Positions 3,318 to 30,162 of a DNA stretch of 30,162 bases are shown here, one piece after another. Every line of letters begins with the position of its first letter. The stretch's first letter is position 1. The position numbers and the translations under genes are program-made. Source of the stretch: a virus (lineage: Duplodnaviria > Caudoviricetes); the IMG/VR virus record IMGVR_UViG_3300020043_001170, positions 1-30,162 of that record. One strand, given 5' to 3'. Under the pieces are notes generated by a model that worked only from the letters and a program-made list of their open reading frames with translations, was not told the DNA's origin and ran no database searches.

Positions 3318-3363
3318 GAACTTTGTTTCATAACGTTAAGGGGGTGGCGACACCCCTTTTTTT
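3318..3363 (+). ncRNA. Candidate 3'-UTR-derived antisense RNA plus intrinsic terminator (GGGGTG-GCGA-CACCCC-T run)
   Basis: Terminator hairpin is clear; upstream TTCATAACGTTAA is the reverse complement of several start regions; sRNA role is inference. Confidence 0.45.
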
Positions 3364-9728: not shown

Positions 9729-10595
9729 ATGAATTTAATTAAACACGGACGTAACGTCCACGAACTGCAACTTGAAGGCAAACAAGTTCACGTAGCTATG
9801 TTATCGGACTTACATTGGGATAACCCTAAATGCGATAGGCAGCTACTCAAAAAACATTTAGACTTTTGTAAAGATAATAATATACCCGTAATTATAAACG
9901 GGGACTTCTTTTGCCTTATGCAAGGACGCGGAGATAATCGCCGAAATAAATCGGACATTAGGCAAGAACACAACAACGCAAGATATTTAGATTCGATTGT
10001 AGAAACGGCTTCGGAATGGTTCAAACCTTACGCGGATATCATTAAGGTAATAGGCTACGGAAACCACGAAACGGGAATAATAAAATATCAAGAAACGGAC
10101 TTACTCCAAAGGTTTGTAGACCTACTTAACTATAAATGTGGTTCAAGTGTTCAAACGGGCGGTTATGGCGGTTGGGTAATTATTCGGCAAACATTCCATA
10201 GCAACGCGCAAATAACAACTAAGGTAAAATACTACCACGGAAGCGGTGGAGGTGGTGTAGTTACCAAAGGCGCATTAAACCTTACTAGAGCGTTAGAAAT
10301 GTACGAAGACTTTGACGTGTTCACTATGGGGCACATACACGAAAATAGTTCACGTAACGATGTTAGGGAAACAATTAAGCACAATTCTAAAACGGGTTAC
10401 TCAATTAAACAAAAGCAACTCCACTTAATGTTAACGGGAACGTACAAAGAAGAATACGGCGAAGGCGCATACGGTTGGCACGTTGAACGTGGCGCACCAC
10501 CAAAGCCATTAGGCGGTCGAATTCTTAAAATCGAATGCAAAGAAGTTGATAAGTTAATAGTAAAGAATATCGATAGTTTCAAATTTCCGTTGTAA
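9729..10595 (+). CDS. Calcineurin-like metallophosphoesterase
   Basis: SDLH, NGD, GNHE, YHG and GHIH motifs in canonical order. Confidence 0.9.
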   Translation: MNLIKHGRNVHELQLEGKQVHVAMLSDLHWDNPKCDRQLLKKHLDFCKDNNIPVIINGDFFCLMQGRGDNRRNKSDIRQEHNNARYLDSIVETASEWFKPYADIIKVIGYGNHETGIIKYQETDLLQRFVDLLNYKCGSSVQTGGYGGWVIIRQTFHSNAQITTKVKYYHGSGGGGVVTKGALNLTRALEMYEDFDVFTMGHIHENSSRNDVRETIKHNSKTGYSIKQKQLHLMLTGTYKEEYGEGAYGWHVERGAPPKPLGGRILKIECKEVDKLIVKNIDSFKFPL

Positions 10596-10644
10596 GTTTG
10601 CGCATAGCGTTTTTAATTAGGGGGGGTAGTAATACCCCTTTTTT
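10593..10644 (+). ncRNA. Candidate small antisense RNA with possible own promoter (TAAGTTTG) and terminator (GGGGTA-GTAA-TACCCC-T6)
   Basis: CATAGCGTTTTTAATTAG is complementary to start regions at 10815, 13046, 15851 and 16137; terminator clear; sRNA role is inference. Confidence 0.5.
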
Positions 10645-10747
10645 CGTTTATAGGCTTGTTTTATTAGGCTTTCCGTAAGTTTATACGCTTATTTCTTATT
10701 TAGAATCATTATAAATTATTGAAAAGTGAAAAAAATTTGTTCAAAAG

Positions 10748-10779
10748 TTTGGTGGATTGAAACTTAGTATTTATATTTG
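10748..10779 (+). promoter_or_regulatory. Bacteroidota housekeeping-sigma promoter (early)
   Basis: TTTG-N20-TATATTTG matches the -33/-7 consensus TTTG...TAnnTTTG. Confidence 0.85.
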
Positions 10780-10814
10780 CGTATGATTATTAACGAACAA
10801 AAACAAAAAACGCT

Positions 10815-10994
10815 ATGGAAAAACAAGAAATGATTAACGAGATTTTAGCTTACGAACAGGAGTTAAAATTCATTTACGAAGAATGTAAAAACGCATTCGG
10901 CCATTTAGACAATGACACGCAAAGCGCATTCAAAGAATGGAACACAATAGATATATTATTAACACGCTTAAACTTAAAAAATGAAACGATTTAG
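10815..10994 (+). CDS. First early protein (59 aa), hypothetical
   Basis: Manually translated MEKQEMINEILAYEQELKF...; A-rich initiation region after the promoter. Confidence 0.7.
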   Translation: MEKQEMINEILAYEQELKFIYEECKNAFGHLDNDTQSAFKEWNTIDILLTRLNLKNETI

Positions 10995-11118
10995 AGACTT
11001 TTATAACGAGTTAGACAACGAAGGAAAATTATTGCTTATCGCGATACGCGATTTTATTTTACTATTCGGAACGCTTTTTATTTCACTTTTATTAATCGCT
11101 TATTTTATAATCTTATGA
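10981..11118 (+). CDS. 45-aa single-TM early membrane peptide
   Basis: MKRFRDFYNELDNEGKLLLIAIRDFILLFGTLFISLLLIAYFIIL; ATGA-coupled to 11115. Confidence 0.65.
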   Translation: MKRFRDFYNELDNEGKLLLIAIRDFILLFGTLFISLLLIAYFIIL

Positions 11119-11426
11119 GAATAGAAACTCACTACCCGTTAGCGTACTTTTACGCAGATACCTTTGAAGGCGAATGTACCTTCGAATTATCAGTAGACGA
11201 AGACAATGATTTAATAGTAACAATTTGCACGGCTATTGCTTACCGTTCGGACTTGGAAATCGAATTAGAACACTTGCTAACCGAGTACGACTTGCAGTTG
11301 ATCGCAACGGAAATTTACCACGATTTGTTAAACTCGGATTTACACGAAGAATTTATACAAGCAGAATACAACACCAAATTACAAAACGCTTATGACAACG
11401 GAAAGAACTCAAGAAGGGAATATTGA
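11115..11426 (+). CDS. Acidic hypothetical early protein
   Basis: 103-aa ORF in a coupled operon. Confidence 0.7.
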   Translation: MRIETHYPLAYFYADTFEGECTFELSVDEDNDLIVTICTAIAYRSDLEIELEHLLTEYDLQLIATEIYHDLLNSDLHEEFIQAEYNTKLQNAYDNGKNSRREY

Positions 11427-11619
11427 TTTACTAGACCAAGTTCGTTGGTGGGTAAGTGGCGGTGGTGCTATACATAAAAACGGACACTTCGATTTTAACC
11501 ATTATTGTAACATTATAAAAATAAAAAATGAAAGAATACGCTATAACACATTGGTTTCAGGAAACCCCGAAATCAAAACGCAAACAACGAACAACAATAG
11601 TTCAAGCCTACGACACTAA
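11392..11619 (+). CDS. Hypothetical early protein
   Basis: 75-aa ORF overlapping both neighbours. Confidence 0.55.
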   Translation: MTTERTQEGNIDLLDQVRWWVSGGGAIHKNGHFDFNHYCNIIKIKNERIRYNTLVSGNPEIKTQTTNNNSSSLRH

Positions 11620-11686
11620 CCACGCTATCTTGGTATTGGATATTTGGAAACCTTTAATAATTAAAATCAATGCAACTAAAAAATAA
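11528..11686 (+). CDS. 52-aa hypothetical protein
   Basis: Manually translated MKEYAITHWFQETPKSKRKQRTTIVQAYDTNHAILVLDIWKPLIIKINATKK; A-rich start context. Confidence 0.55.
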   Translation: MKEYAITHWFQETPKSKRKQRTTIVQAYDTNHAILVLDIWKPLIIKINATKK

Positions 11687-12077
11687 ATTTACCACACTAA
11701 TCGAAGACAACGATTTACGCAAACGTAGCAGAAAACGAAAGTACGTTAACCAACGAGGTTACATAATTAAGTTGATGAGACATTACGGATTCAGTTACAT
11801 AGAAATCGGAGAAATGTTAGGACTTAACCACGCGACTTGTATACACGCTTTTAATAACGCTAATTTGTGGGAATCAATAAATGACCGACACTTCTTTAAC
11901 GATACGGAACACCTACGCGCAGAAATGAATAATTACAAAATAACGCGATCATTAAACGATTTGTACCTAGACGTTAAAAGCGCAGGTGGATTAAAAGACC
12001 TTGAGAACATTCAGGAACGAATGCGAAGAGGAGAATACCAAATAAATTTTATTTACGAAGAACATAATTTGAATTAA
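11670..12077 (+). CDS. DnaA C-terminal-like HTH DNA-binding protein
   Basis: SRKRKYV..R...S..EIG..LG.NHAT.IH resembles the Bac_DnaA_C HTH. Confidence 0.7.
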   Translation: MQLKNKFTTLIEDNDLRKRSRKRKYVNQRGYIIKLMRHYGFSYIEIGEMLGLNHATCIHAFNNANLWESINDRHFFNDTEHLRAEMNNYKITRSLNDLYLDVKSAGGLKDLENIQERMRRGEYQINFIYEEHNLN

Positions 12078-12090
12078 ATAGTTATATTTG
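12062..12090 (+). promoter_or_regulatory. Promoter: TATATTTG (-7 box) overlapping an ACA-N14-TAGTTAT motif
   Basis: TATATTTG at 12083-12090; ACA at 12062-12064 and TAGTTAT at 12079-12085; no clear -33 box. Confidence 0.6.
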
Positions 12091-12093
12091 TAC

Positions 12094-12185
12094 TATGGTT
12101 CGGTCTCACAATATAGAACATAAAGAAGTTATTAACCCTGCTAATGACGTGGACGTGAGACCCTGCGAAGTTAGTGGGGTTTTTT
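12094..12185 (+). ncRNA. Structured leader RNA: two hairpins with complementary loops, ending in a terminator
   Basis: GGTCTCAC (12102-12109) pairs with GTGAGACC (12155-12162); stem AACCCTGCTAA/TTAGTGGGGTT followed by a T run. Confidence 0.7.
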
Positions 12186-12205
12186 ATTTATTAAAAATTT
12201 AAGTT

Positions 12206-12379
12206 ATGATTTACTTACAACAAAAAATTGTTTTTGAAAATTGCGAAATTTTTGTTACTGTTAATGAAAAAGATAAAAAGGTAGTAATTGAAATTAATAG
12301 CCAAGAAGCCGAATTAAGCTACGAAGAATTTTATCAATTTGTTAGTATTCTAGAAAAAATCAAACCCGTAAAAGGATGA
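12206..12379 (+). CDS. 57-aa hypothetical protein
   Basis: Manually translated MIYLQQKIVFENCEIF...; ATGA-coupled to the initiator gene. Confidence 0.65.
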   Translation: MIYLQQKIVFENCEIFVTVNEKDKKVVIEINSQEAELSYEEFYQFVSILEKIKPVKG

Positions 12380-13032
12380 GCGGTTGGATTAAATTACATA
12401 GGTCGTTAAAAAATTGGGAATGGTATAGCGACCATAGCGCAACCCGTTTATTAGTTCATTTACTTGTTTCGGTAAATTACGAAAATAAGATGTGGAAAGG
12501 TCAAGAAGTTGAAGCAGGAACTTTAATAACAAGTTGGGAGAATTTAGCTTTAGAAACGGGACTTACTGTTAAGCAAGTTAGAACGGCAATGGCTAAATTA
12601 GAAAAGTCTAAAGAAGTGGCACGCTACGCGACAAACAAATGGCAGGCTATAACCCTTGTAAAATGGGACAAAATGCAATGCTTAGATACTAAGGAAGGGC
12701 AAGCAGAAGGGCAAACAAAGGGCAGGCAAAGGGCAACAACTAAAGAATATAAAGAAATTAAAGAAGAAAAGAATAATACATTCAATTTTTATGATTCGAT
12801 GGTTTCTTTTGGATTCGAGGAACAACTTGTTAAAGATTGGATACAAGTACGCAAGGTTAAAAAGGCTACAAACACCGAAACCGCGTTTAACGGATTTATA
12901 CGCGAAGTAAATAAAAACGAAAATAGTCCTAATTTTATACTAAAGAATTGCGTTGAAAGGAATTGGAGTGGATTCAAGTCCGAATGGCTACCTAAAGAAC
13001 AAACTGCCGAGAATACATTTTGTTGGCGCTAA
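12376..13032 (+). CDS. Replication initiator (lambda O / DnaD-like, winged HTH)
   Basis: N-terminal GWIKLHR motif; HTH LALETGLTVKQVRTAM..L; internal iteron-like repeats; upstream of helicase. Confidence 0.75.
   Translation: MSGWIKLHRSLKNWEWYSDHSATRLLVHLLVSVNYENKMWKGQEVEAGTLITSWENLALETGLTVKQVRTAMAKLEKSKEVARYATNKWQAITLVKWDKMQCLDTKEGQAEGQTKGRQRATTKEYKEIKEEKNNTFNFYDSMVSFGFEEQLVKDWIQVRKVKKATNTETAFNGFIREVNKNENSPNFILKNCVERNWSGFKSEWLPKEQTAENTFCWR
12695..12780. repeat. Putative replication origin: 4x AAGGGCA iterons plus A-rich tract
   Basis: Copies at 12695, 12707, 12718 and 12729 (12/11/11 spacing), followed by ~40 nt of A-rich sequence. Confidence 0.6.
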
Positions 13033-13045
13033 TTAAAAACGAACT

Positions 13046-13936
13046 ATGAAAGGATTTAAGATAACAAAAGCACACGAAGTAATTGACGATTTATTTCGAT
13101 ATAGAAATAACTACCACGAAAAAGGTAAATACTTAGGCTTCGAAGGAATGGACGAATACTATTCGATGAGTTTAGGAAATTGCACGGATTGGACGGGATT
13201 TCCGATGTCGGGTAAAACTCAAGTTCTTATGGAATGTTTAATGAATACAAGCCGTTTTTATGGTTGGAAACATTTAGTATATTTCCCTGACGTAGGTTCG
13301 AACGTGGAAATTATCGCGGACTTGATCAATAAGAAAACAGGTAAAAGTTTCGACCCAAGTGCGTACAATGTAATTACGGATGATGAAATTTTACAAGCTA
13401 TCGAATGGATAACGCATCATTTTAAGGTACTAACGCGAAGCGATATTAAGGCGAAAATGACACCTATCGAGTTTTGGGATTACGCGGTGCAACTAAAAAA
13501 AGACGAAGGACTTGAAACGGCTTCGATAGATTCTTGGAAGGACTTAAACCACCCTTACAACGATTACGGTGGTTATGCTCAATATTTAGAGTTCGTGTTG
13601 CCGTATCGAAACCAAATCGCAGAAGACAACGACTTACACTTACATACAATTATTCACCCAAAGCTAACGGAAAAGGAAAACGGAAAACGAAGCGCGCCCG
13701 TTCCTTATGACTTAAAGGGTGGTTCGGAATGGTTTAATTCGGGAAAATGTATGATAACAGTACACCGAGATGACCCAACGTTTTACAAAGCGGAATTGTA
13801 CTTCAATAAGATTAAACCGCGCTCAAACGGGAAGATAGGTAAACACGAAATCTTTTTCGATAAAGAAAAATTAGTTTACTTTGAGCAAGAACAACACGGG
13901 AACACATTAATTAAAAAATACGCTAAAGCAAAATAA
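13046..13936 (+). CDS. Replicative helicase, RecA-fold SF4 (DnaB/Twinkle-like)
   Basis: Walker A TGFPMSGKT; ASIDSW; IHPK; YDLKGGSEWFN; ITVHR. Confidence 0.8.
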   Translation: MKGFKITKAHEVIDDLFRYRNNYHEKGKYLGFEGMDEYYSMSLGNCTDWTGFPMSGKTQVLMECLMNTSRFYGWKHLVYFPDVGSNVEIIADLINKKTGKSFDPSAYNVITDDEILQAIEWITHHFKVLTRSDIKAKMTPIEFWDYAVQLKKDEGLETASIDSWKDLNHPYNDYGGYAQYLEFVLPYRNQIAEDNDLHLHTIIHPKLTEKENGKRSAPVPYDLKGGSEWFNSGKCMITVHRDDPTFYKAELYFNKIKPRSNGKIGKHEIFFDKEKLVYFEQEQHGNTLIKKYAKAK

Positions 13937-14226
13937 TGGACGATTTCACAACACTACGAGCGCAAGTTTTACTTTCTCACACTTACTTAAAGATTCAGGG
14001 AAGTTTGAATGAAATAAAAGCGAAGAACCCTAATAGAACCGACTTAATAGATAGTATGGAAGAAACTTTAGAACATTTACAAGAATGTAAAGTTTATTGG
14101 AATCAACTCGAACAAGAATACCGAGCGTTGCGCCAAAATGCGTATAGATTAGAATTAGTTAACTTGGACTTAAAGACGGAAAATAATCGCTTAGAATCCA
14201 TTAATAAAGCCTTAAATTACGAATAA
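13936..14226 (+). CDS. Coiled-coil hypothetical protein
   Basis: 96 aa, coupled by TAATG on both sides. Confidence 0.7.
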   Translation: MDDFTTLRAQVLLSHTYLKIQGSLNEIKAKNPNRTDLIDSMEETLEHLQECKVYWNQLEQEYRALRQNAYRLELVNLDLKTENNRLESINKALNYE

Positions 14227-14853
14227 TGAAAATAACAAACGAAGATAATATAGAATTGATGTCAAGGTATCCCGACAAATACTTCGACTTAGCAATAGTT
14301 GACCCACCGTATGGTATTGGAATTGACGGTCAAAAGAAAAGTATTAATAAAAACCCTAAACATAATCGAAAAGAACATTCAAGAAAAAATTGGGATAAAG
14401 CAATACCTGAAAAAAATTATTTTGACGAACTTTTTAGGGTTAGCAGAAATCAAATAATATGGGGGGGGGAATTATTTTACTGAATTCTTGAAGCCAACAA
14501 AAGCGTGGATTTTTTGGTACAAAGGACAAAATGACTTAACTATGTCTGACGGAGAAATGGCTTGGACTTCATTCGAGACGGTTACACGTCAAGTTGAAAT
14601 AAACCGAGCGCAATTAATTTTACAAAATACATTCCACCCAACTGAAAAACCTTATAAACTTTACAAATGGATTCTTGACAAATACGCTAAGCAAGGGGAT
14701 AAAATTTTAGACACTCATTTGGGTAGTGGCTCAATCGCGATAGCGTGCCACGATTACGGATTTGATTTAACCGCTTGTGAATTAGATTCGGAATACTACG
14801 AAAAAGCGATGAAAAGAATAAATAACCACATTTCGCAACAAAAATTATTTTAA
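14226..14853 (+). pseudogene. N6-adenine/N4-cytosine DNA methyltransferase (beta class), frameshifted at a G9 tract
   Basis: DPPY in the first ORF; HPTEKP and LDTHLGSGS in the second; removing one G at 14461-14469 restores IIWGGNYF and a 208-aa ORF. Confidence 0.85.
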
Positions 14854-15795: not shown

Positions 15796-15826
15796 ATTGT
15801 TAATTGAAATATAATGTTTATATTTG
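15796..15826 (+). promoter_or_regulatory. Bacteroidota housekeeping-sigma promoter
   Basis: ATTG-N19-TATATTTG. Confidence 0.75.
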
Positions 15827-15850
15827 TATATAATTAAAAACGAAAACGCT

Positions 15851-16084
15851 ATGAAAAAATGCAGAACCAAAAAAGATTTAATGAATAATCCTTATGTATC
15901 GAGTATACATACCGAATATCAATATGGAGTATTTGATAATTACGACGATATATTTATATTATCGTTAAAAGGAGGTTATTGGTTTAAGGAAGAACAAGTT
16001 GGTTGTTTACACGAACCAACGATTAAAGCTTTATGTGATAGGTTTAATTCAATGACAATAAGCAAAAGAACAGACGAATTTTAA
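15851..16084 (+). CDS. Hypothetical protein (77 aa)
   Basis: ATG 15851 preferred because the 15824 start lies inside the promoter. Confidence 0.7.
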   Translation: MKKCRTKKDLMNNPYVSSIHTEYQYGVFDNYDDIFILSLKGGYWFKEEQVGCLHEPTIKALCDRFNSMTISKRTDEF

Positions 16085-16093
16085 TAAAAAAAA

Positions 16094-16119
16094 CGAGGGG
16101 TGCGACTCGGTTAACGCAC
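16094..16119 (+). promoter_or_regulatory. Compact H-type RNA pseudoknot upstream of ERF
   Basis: S1 CGAG/CTCG, S2 GTGCG/CGCAC, loops GG, A and GTTAA. Confidence 0.6.
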
Positions 16120-16136
16120 GTTTTGATTTATACGCT

Positions 16137-16655
16137 ATGAAACATTTATTTAAGTCGTTGGCAGCCTTCCAACAAGAAGTACCCGTAATTCACAAAGGGA
16201 CACAAGGCTACGGTTATTCTTACGCAGATTTACCGAAGATTTTTGAGGTGGTTAACCCGCTTCTAAAGAAACACGGATTAGGCTTTACGCAATTACTCGA
16301 TACTAAAGAAGGGATCGACTACATTTGTACGGTTATTTTTCACGTTGAAAGTGGCGAAACGTTAGAATCAAAGGTAGCTATTCCGCAAGTAGAATTAAAG
16401 GGAATGAACGATTACCAAAGTTTTGGTAGTGGTGTTACTTACTTTAGAAGATACGCTTTAAGTTCCGCGCTTGGATTAGTTACTGACAAAGACACGGACG
16501 CTTCAGGCGAACAAGTAAAGAAAAAACCTACGATCGATAACAAACGACTTGGTAAGGCCTTAGAAATGATCGCCGAAGGTAAATACACCAAGGAAGAACT
16601 AATCGAAAAGTTTGAGTTAACCGAAGGTCAAACTAAATTACTAGAAAACGTATGA
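16137..16655 (+). CDS. erf: ERF-family ssDNA annealing protein
   Basis: YSYADL..I, GL.FTQ, FHVESGE and Q..GS..TY.RRYAL....G...D.D.D motifs. Confidence 0.9.
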   Translation: MKHLFKSLAAFQQEVPVIHKGTQGYGYSYADLPKIFEVVNPLLKKHGLGFTQLLDTKEGIDYICTVIFHVESGETLESKVAIPQVELKGMNDYQSFGSGVTYFRRYALSSALGLVTDKDTDASGEQVKKKPTIDNKRLGKALEMIAEGKYTKEELIEKFELTEGQTKLLENV

Positions 16656-17997: not shown

Positions 17998-18213
17998 ATG
18001 TTTATAGACGATTACTCCTTACGAGGTTACTTGCGCAAGATTCTCGAAACAAAAACACGGAATCAAATAGTAACCGAAATAAAAGAACGAGGACACAAAA
18101 TGCACCAATACAACTTAGATAGGTTTTTACTTGGTAAACCTGTAAGCCTTGAAACTGCAAAGAAGTTAGACGCGTTTGTTTATCGTTTTTACAATGGATT
18201 GCCACCCGAATAA
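17998..18213 (+). CDS. Small HTH-like protein (71 aa)
   Basis: ATG 17998 just after the SSB stop; QYNLDRFLLGKPVSLET..KL resembles a Cro/XRE fold. Confidence 0.55.
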   Translation: MFIDDYSLRGYLRKILETKTRNQIVTEIKERGHKMHQYNLDRFLLGKPVSLETAKKLDAFVYRFYNGLPPE

Positions 18214-18280: not shown

Positions 18281-18811
18281 ATGGAATGGCTTAAAGACGT
18301 GGCAAAAGACCACAAAGAATGGGTAAAATTAGTAAAGAGTTTCGGCGAAGATTTATACGCTGAGGACTTGGTGCAAGAATGTTATCTAAGATTATACAAA
18401 TACACGAAACCTGAAAACGTAATAACAAATGGGCAAATCAACAAAGGATTTATGTACTTCACTCTTCGTAATATGTACCTTTATGCTATTCGTAACAAAG
18501 GAAAATTTGAAGGCTTTGATATTGAGGCGATACAAATAAAAGATGAACCAAGCCAATTAGATAAACACGAAGCCTATCTAAAGATATTGGGTAAGATAGA
18601 AAACGAAGTGGACTCGTGGCATTGGTACGATCAAAAATTATTTGAACTCTACCGCGACACGGATTTAAGTATAAGGGATATTGCAGCCGAAACTAAAATA
18701 AGTTCAAGTAGTATTTTTAACACGCTCAAGAACTGCAAACAAAAAATAAGGATAGCCGTTGGGGAAGATTACACGGACTACAAAAATGAAGATTTTGAAT
18801 TAATTAAATAA
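18281..18811 (+). CDS. Phage-encoded ECF-type sigma-70 factor (probable late activator)
   Basis: Region 2 AEDLVQE.YLR...Y..LRN; region 4 SIRDIAAETKIS.SSI.NT. Confidence 0.8.
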   Translation: MEWLKDVAKDHKEWVKLVKSFGEDLYAEDLVQECYLRLYKYTKPENVITNGQINKGFMYFTLRNMYLYAIRNKGKFEGFDIEAIQIKDEPSQLDKHEAYLKILGKIENEVDSWHWYDQKLFELYRDTDLSIRDIAAETKISSSSIFNTLKNCKQKIRIAVGEDYTDYKNEDFELIK

Positions 18812-29989: not shown

Positions 29990-30162
29990 ATGAGTAACTT
30001 AAACACAATCCTAAACAAGTTAGGAAAAATCGAAGAAATCGAACAAACGAACTTAGCTAAACACGAAGTAGAATTAGCAAATATAAATGAATTAGATAAA
30101 TTAATAAATAATAATAACAGTTTATATAGTGAGTTTGTTAATGTGGATAAATTGATTAAGCC
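29990..30162 (+). CDS. 5' part of the junction-spanning 143-aa protein
   Basis: MSNLNTILNKLGKIEEIEQTNLAKHEVELANINELDK...; continues in frame to the stop at 295. Confidence 0.85.
   Translation, partial: MSNLNTILNKLGKIEEIEQTNLAKHEVELANINELDKLINNNNSLYSEFVNVDKLIK
30128..30162. repeat. Terminal direct repeat, right copy
   Basis: Identical to 2-36. Confidence 0.95.

Follow-up and report, generated by a model that had tools for sequence, protein, structure and literature searches.

Introduction

Translation initiation in Bacteroidota is driven by A-rich leader positions. Within the same phylum, the host RNA GibS of Bacteroides thetaiotaomicron is described in PMC7366714 as repressing by pairing at the start region, with a single-stranded 5' seed of 30-50 nt laid across start regions without Shine-Dalgarno sites and with metabolic targets. 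Among phages, the C4 RNAs of P1 and P7 act with short seeds on their own initiation region, seed and target co-varying between the phages (PMC5320573, PMC8198154), and C4 is outlined in PMC5320573 as an RNA of a temperate phage that folds into three stem-loops, is processed by RNase P and uses two loop seeds against a single target operon. According to the review PMC12197685, the small phage antisense RNAs P22 sar, lambda OOP and aQ tune developmental genes and are cis-encoded and fully complementary to one gene, and StxS/lambda 6S is a short terminator-ended RNA tied to late transcription, which arises from the late operon 5' leader and has gained toxin and host mRNAs as pairing targets. The closest described target-side motif, as far as the account in PMC3203893 goes, is that of the start-associated sequences of cluster K mycobacteriophages, a private motif at the starts of some non-structural genes with rare reverse copies; in that account the binding partner was left open by the authors and no RNA partner was identified.

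In this study, the window, a stretch of 30,162 nucleotides of viral DNA, was analysed for a short element (element B) encoded directly behind the last late gene of a tailed phage. Like GibS, element B would lay a single-stranded 5' seed across start regions, but it is phage-encoded, ~41 nt in total and directed at the phage's own early genes. It shares with C4 the short seed and the co-varying initiation regions and differs in that it has a single terminator hairpin and a linear seed and would address three or more distant target families; membership of C4/CI was rejected, because element B has no Rfam match and lacks the three stem-loops with loop seeds given in PMC5320573. A cis-encoded RNA of the sar/OOP/aQ type was likewise rejected, since the element and its several imperfect targets lie at separate sites on the same strand. 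Unlike StxS, element B closes the late operon at its 3' end, and unlike the cluster K motifs, its reverse copy lies within a promoter-terminator unit and co-varies with the motif. Judged from its sequence, the putative RNA B has the marks of an sRNA, being encoded apart from its targets with short, imperfect complementarity to several mRNAs, and its modelled fold has an accessible single-stranded seed and an intrinsic terminator. A description of element B was not found in the literature searched, which was mostly open-access; a term search of the text of PMC12197685 gave no mention of Bacteroid or Flavobacter, and the seeds are absent from six supplementary files of PMC10690425 (three further files, outside this search, possibly list the hairpin). 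Early-gene shut-off in phages without recognisable repressors is mostly unexplained, and element B bears on this question, as well as on the regulation of start regions without Shine-Dalgarno sites in Bacteroidota.

Results

Genome organisation

The window is a near-complete tailed-phage genome of ~30 kb, and 100% of its recognised genes lie on the + strand. Up to 10595 the gene order runs through head, portal, tail, amidase and a metallophosphoesterase-like gene (hereafter phosphoesterase), and after 10595 through small early genes, replication initiator, helicase, NinG, ERF, exonuclease, SSB, a sigma-like gene and terminase, with early units headed by Bacteroidota-type TATATTTG boxes at 10772, 12083, 15819 and 18257. 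The nearest relatives are uncultured viral contigs, and no cultured close relative was detected among 50,697 phage records (best 34% identity). Since the genome-collection matches are split between Flavobacterium/Flavobacteriaceae bins (several) and unrelated bins, the host is a presumed one. The first-pass annotation had pictured an RNA-only switch in a phage with no visible repressor; this description is not supported, as protein regulators are encoded (a DnaA-C-type HTH at 11670 and the sigma-like gene at 18281). No antirepressor was recognised in the ORF scans.

Layout of element B and its predicted RNA

Element B runs from the stop codon with its box, through the seed, to a hairpin and T6:

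9729..10595, + strand: phosphoesterase gene, the last late gene (phrog_7339, E=1e-17); the 3' end of its mRNA carries the seed too
10593..10600, + strand: sigmaA-type -7 box TAAGTTTG on the phosphoesterase stop codon, the predicted promoter of element B
10603..10619, + strand: antisense seed CATAGCGTTTTTAATTA, single-stranded in the predicted RNA
10604..10644, + strand: predicted 41-nt RNA B, with a 5' end placed at 10604-10606 from the box position
10620..10644, + strand: intrinsic terminator with G-rich stem, GTAA tetraloop and T6, which also terminates the late operon
10772..10779, + strand: early promoter box TATATTTG before target 1, with TTTG ~19 nt upstream

The stretch 10603-10620 reads CATAGCGTTTTTAATTAG, and both this sequence and its four target matches lie where the first-pass annotation had placed them. 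The hairpin is GGGGTA-GTAA-TACCCC at 10623-10638, with T6 at 10639-10644. As reported in PMC9723704, the F. psychrophilum promoter box occupies -12 to -5, which would set +1 of RNA B at 10605±1, likeliest at A10604 or A10606. A start at 10604-10606 leaves the C opposite the G of AUG out of the window's RNA B; the pairing of all 18 nt claimed before is thus present in the DNA and not wholly within an RNA made from this promoter. A start near 10604 would also remove a small self-hairpin and free the seed in the predicted fold (unpaired probability 0.99 when the RNA starts at 10604, vs 0.62 otherwise), and would explain the varying C of CAT in the window's lineage; in other lineages CAT falls within the predicted RNA B. 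Promoter-like boxes of this study are TAAGTTTG, TAATTTAG and TAAATTCG. Element B boxes are followed by CGCATA/CGTATA, like the sequence after the phage's early promoters (n=17: CGTATA 5, CGTATG 5, TGTATA 4). In Rfam, the window gave no match at gathering score, and 10400-12400 no credible match at E<=1. Two metatranscriptome runs (0.09 share) supplied contigs only, mostly 85-95% alike and partial, with none over 10506-10913.

Pairing with gene starts in the window

Four start regions on the same strand are complementary to the seed:

10806..10817, + strand: target 1, start region of the first early gene (10815-10994, 59 aa); strongest duplex, -19.6 kcal/mol
13029..13048, + strand: target 2, replicative helicase start (gene 13046-13936); -14.9 kcal/mol, 2-nt bulge
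15831..15853, + strand: target 3, start of the recombination operon's first gene (15851-16084); -17.3 kcal/mol, 6-nt bulge
16132..16139, + strand: target 4, ERF start region (gene 16137-16655; ERF = PF04404)

The protein of target 1 has no PHROG, no Pfam match above cut-off and only hypothetical proteins as Atlas matches, and the PHROGs matches of the target 2 gene are primase/helicase. The target 3 gene sits behind TATATTTG at 15819, and near relatives have the same leader. The ERF start, ~5.5 kb from element B and behind its own promoter, points to action in trans. Three copies of ACGCTATG occur on the + strand, all three at gene starts, and the single copy on the - strand is element B. When 10596-10619 was paired with 48 ATG starts, the strongest five duplexes were at 10815, 15851, 13046, 17320 and 16137, all early. 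The genome-wide complementarity statistics proposed earlier as a check favour the element: the sum of the best four duplexes among the 48 starts has p=0.001 against 1000 composition-preserving shuffles, and again p=0.001 with CAT fixed, so that the pairing is not a product of A-rich leaders, against which the first-pass annotation had cautioned. Taken as a class, early starts differ marginally from the rest (Mann-Whitney p=0.088 with the full spacer, 0.025 from the predicted start), which indicates that matching is confined to a subset of early genes. If the RNA is taken to begin at its predicted start, duplexes in the window are of modest strength (-9.7 to -12.9).

Conservation in relatives

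Loci of element B were collected by three scans via the phosphoesterase, which gave 213 loci besides the window, and statistics were computed on distinct sequences, because some contigs were retrieved twice. A terminator lies within 60 nt past the phosphoesterase stop in 140/214 loci, with 70 distinct spacers; the other 74 are incomplete, have another gene next, have no terminator or carry a longer cassette. CAT seeds before terminators, which had been suggested as a feature to look for in relatives, are indeed frequent: CAT[A/T] occurs in 59/70 distinct spacers vs 18.2±3.6 expected from shuffles, a count that, like the box counts below, comes from related and hence non-independent genomes. 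Other stop-terminator spacers of the same loci have CAT[A/T] in 22/70 vs 16.5±3.3 expected, and these are mostly element A (see below). In 400 kb of the Flavobacterium bin G001, 3/18 stop-terminator spacers contain CAT[A/T] (4.8 expected) and the box lies on 3/316 stops, so that, within this small n, the seed is no general host 3'-end feature. The proposed -7 box overlapping the stop codon was upheld as a relaxed motif, TAnnTTnG lying on the phosphoesterase stop in 50/70 relatives vs 19/900 other stops and 0/70 other stop-terminator spacers; the canonical TAnnTTTG was found in only 11/70 spacers, and the -33 TTG is present in 5/88 and absent in 83/88.

CAT is retained in 56/64 classed spacers while its flanks turn over, and hairpins of differing sequence occupy the terminator position. 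Seven of the eight non-CAT variants keep G-U pairing; four of these are changed at the predicted -1/-2 promoter position, leaving three informative. One locus (L016) has a seed mismatch and another (L018) lacks the C.

Some relatives are arranged otherwise. Directly past the phosphoesterase stop, L164, L168, L169, L173-L175, L181 and L186 have another putative RNA in the promoter-terminator slot, with a 5' hairpin (CAGGTCTC...GAGAC) and no clear anti-start seed. L076, L078-L080, L146-L160, L220 and L221 show no terminator or seed after the phosphoesterase, and several of this group have a CCTTTCATAA seed at the position of element A.

Covariation of seeds and start regions

The seeds fall into the classes CATAGCGTT, CATAATACGTTG, CATA(G/A)TTGTT, CATATACTTG, CATTAGCGTGTG and C(A/G)TAATTGTTTT, and the leaders of the first early gene by lineage include AAACGCT-ATG, AAACAATTTATT-ATG and AACAAC-ATG. 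The protein of this gene belongs to a small helical family of 50-62 aa, placed at or near the early-region head in 113/140 element loci, and is a candidate host-takeover or regulatory protein. Exact ungapped matching disclosed targets in the window's lineage only and missed bulged ones elsewhere, and it was replaced by duplex energies. With eight seed classes, the pairing of each seed with its own first early gene was the best of 40320 permutations, several C5 rows in which the second ATG was taken as the start being left in. With six classes, p=0.0014 was obtained for first-1.2-kb and promoter-proximal starts and p=0.0028 for starts 1.2-9 kb away, and the absence of the effect at late starts (p=0.80-0.89) and internal ATGs (p=0.15-0.63) argues against genome composition. 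These six- and eight-class values overstate independence, since a tree built by a quick method contains ~4 independent lineages, which also makes 0.042 the smallest exact p per family.

Thirty families present in at least four seed classes (17 early, 13 late) were compared one by one. Three of the 17 early families co-vary with the seed, namely the first early gene (p=0.001), ERF (p=0.003) and the 799-aa primase/helicase (p=0.042, its floor), vs 0/13 late families, and these three are gene types that the first-pass annotation had named beforehand. ERF shows the largest effect (mean residual -4.3 kcal/mol), with p ~0.08 after Bonferroni correction over the 30 families. Across the four lineages, own pairing ranked 1/24 for the first early gene, for the replication helicase (helicase/primase-helicase) and for ERF, vs 14/24 for exonuclease and 16/24 for phosphoesterase as controls; the covariation of seeds with start contexts that had been put forward as a check was therefore found.

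Individual loci display double changes, such as seed CATAACGTGT with start ACACGTTATG in L100 and seed GTGTGTG with ERF leader CACACAC in L117. The three unrelated families share the seed-complementary core only, and its spacing to ATG differs. Twelve more-distant loci were compared as well. In L212 and L190, where the TATATTTG box is canonical, the two best matches are the first downstream gene and one 4.3 kb away; the other ten gave no clear early target, two of them having <200 nt downstream. G-U wobble bias on the sense strand showed no consistent direction.

Element A

A second candidate of similar build lies among the structural genes:

3318..3363, + strand: element A, made up of seed CATAACGTT (3329-3337) and a terminator, following the probable major tail gene

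The label "major tail" rests on gene position, the PHROGs category being unknown function. Element A reaches p=0.003 for its best four duplexes in the window. The likeness of the two elements claimed earlier holds for seed and terminator and breaks down at the promoter, as element A has no TAnnTTnG box. In relatives, CAT[A/T] occurs in 29/56 distinct A-position spacers vs 15.2±3.1 expected, and several relatives have no CAT seed there. The A seeds resemble the leaders of their own lineages (CATA(A/T)GCGTT-type in C1, CATAGTTGTG in C6), and in L220/L221, which are without element B, the A seed has an 11-nt match to ERF (-13.7 vs -6.1). We regard element A as a paralogue of B for which the evidence is weaker.

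The window's best A match, with the phosphoesterase start (-15.3), was set aside as chance, because relatives that share this A seed carry different leaders there. As a further lineage-specific pair, the A-position seed TATTGGTTAA of L256 (4199-4260) finds its best match among 27 starts (-15.8) in a 58-aa early gene with the leader TTAACCA-ATG.

Discussion

On the comparative sequence evidence, element B is a real, conserved and co-evolving regulatory element. Its probable role is that of a minimal trans-acting antisense RNA which represses early translation with feedback or late timing. RNA B would consist of a free 5' seed and a terminator hairpin, ~41 nt in all, encoded directly behind the last late gene, and would block translation of the first early gene, the helicase and the recombination operon/ERF by base-pairing to their A-rich leaders and start codons. 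It may be made from a weak host-sigmaA-type promoter within the last late gene's stop codon, and the 3' end of each late mRNA that stops at the terminator would be a second source of the seed. Both sources would rise with genome multiplication and the onset of late transcription, so that the likeliest job is a feedback shut-off of replication and recombination at the early-to-late transition, for which element A, at a structural gene end, may serve as back-up. The transcription, start site, pairing in vivo, repression and timing of element B are points that we infer. Masking of the start region had been called plausible as a mode of repression in Bacteroidota, and GibS, as presented in PMC7366714, supplies a precedent. 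In favour of the reading in trans, the covariation with distant ERF and helicase starts, which lie behind their own promoters and a terminator, calls for a diffusible partner, and the antisense orientation between box and terminator suits an RNA better than it does a decoy or operator.

On read-through RNA the seed may also fold onto the first early start in cis, and it is conceivable, though unlikely, that this is all it does: the seed on read-through late transcripts would fold onto the start ~200 nt downstream and lock it. Such a lock, in which only early-promoter RNA is translated and no free RNA is made, follows a principle known from IS10/IS50. The read-through fold does pair the seed with the 10815 start at a probability of ~1, and it is predicted, for own seeds only, in 63/69 relatives within 620 nt; it leaves unexplained why ERF and helicase starts, 2-6 kb away with other promoters and a terminator in between, co-vary with the seed, does not account for the box on the stop codon and fails for A-type seeds matching ERF. 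The cis fold may thus operate alongside repression in trans. Another rather unlikely reading makes element B an immunity or carrier-state RNA, made constitutively by host sigma, that silences early genes during non-integrated persistence or blocks superinfecting kin. Its box belongs to the type found in the early promoters, which the host reads, and could hence fire without phage proteins, the targets include replication, and the seeds are lineage-specific like immunity types. The molecular mechanism is the one proposed for repression in trans and the timing differs. Against this reading, no integrase or partition gene was found among the 48+13 ORFs scanned, which leaves the immunity switch of the first-pass annotation unsupported; 0/17 genome-collection hits were shown to be integrated, on a cursory view of the flanks, and element A stands without a box behind a structural gene. 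A wider picture, in which a large group of freshwater Bacteroidota phages tag their replication, recombination and first early gene starts per lineage and one or two 40-nt RNAs, one of them made from the promoter within the stop codon, silence these starts together, giving lineage-specific superinfection immunity or a dormant carrier state without a repressor protein, is doubtful.

The remaining explanations fare worse. We consider it very unlikely that the matches form a DNA-level site, either an operator for a phage protein such as the 11670 HTH or an inverted repeat for promoter inversion. A 12-bp inverted repeat (10603-10614 / 10806-10817) does flank the early promoter, the HTH family is found in all six seed classes and the wobble test pointed in no consistent direction; the matches nevertheless go with an ATG and in many cases contain a bulge, the antisense copy is in every case flanked by box and terminator, none of the 140 element loci showed an inverted arrangement in a search of fixed orientation, and no recombinase was recognised among the window genes. 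The early region visibly contains repeats of promoter-leader cassettes, which would suit an inverted early-leader copy without function whose likeness is maintained via duplication or gene conversion; this is most unlikely, given that the three unrelated families have only the core in common, at differing distances from ATG, and that CAT outlasts its flanks with the seed rebuilt per lineage. A minus-strand micro-ORF with an early-type leader (MRKLTTEI in the window) is scarcely credible and was rejected: the reverse complement makes a good start context for Bacteroidota, but frame, length and start codon are not kept across the 64 spacers, which show all three frames, lengths of 1-67 aa and eight cases without ATG.

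If it acts in trans as proposed, element B is minimal and testable, has natural compensatory variants in at least four lineages, suggests a possible role for phage start-associated motifs and could be developed into a programmable off-switch of 40 nt for translation in Flavobacterium and Bacteroides.

Other features of the window

The window ends (2-36 and 30128-30162) share ~35 nt, which fits a circularly permuted near-complete genome. A candidate DNA-binding regulator is encoded at 11670-12077 (DnaA C-terminal HTH, E=3.5e-8) and another candidate regulator at 17998-18213 (a 71-aa viral family that is conserved and gives a weak HTH_3 match), and DNA methyltransferase matches are split across two ORFs (14226-14483 and 14488-14853). 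At 12083-12190 a TATATTTG box stands before a leader, its 5' GGTCTCAC being complementary to GTGAGACC within a long terminator-like hairpin; this leader precedes the replication genes, is attenuator-like, has a similar counterpart in L256 and may resemble the P4 CI/C4 leaders. A hairpin GTGCG...CGCAC at 16093-16121, upstream of ERF, is a possible processing or antitermination signal. In relatives, a GTAACGCAC-like repeat sits before many early starts.
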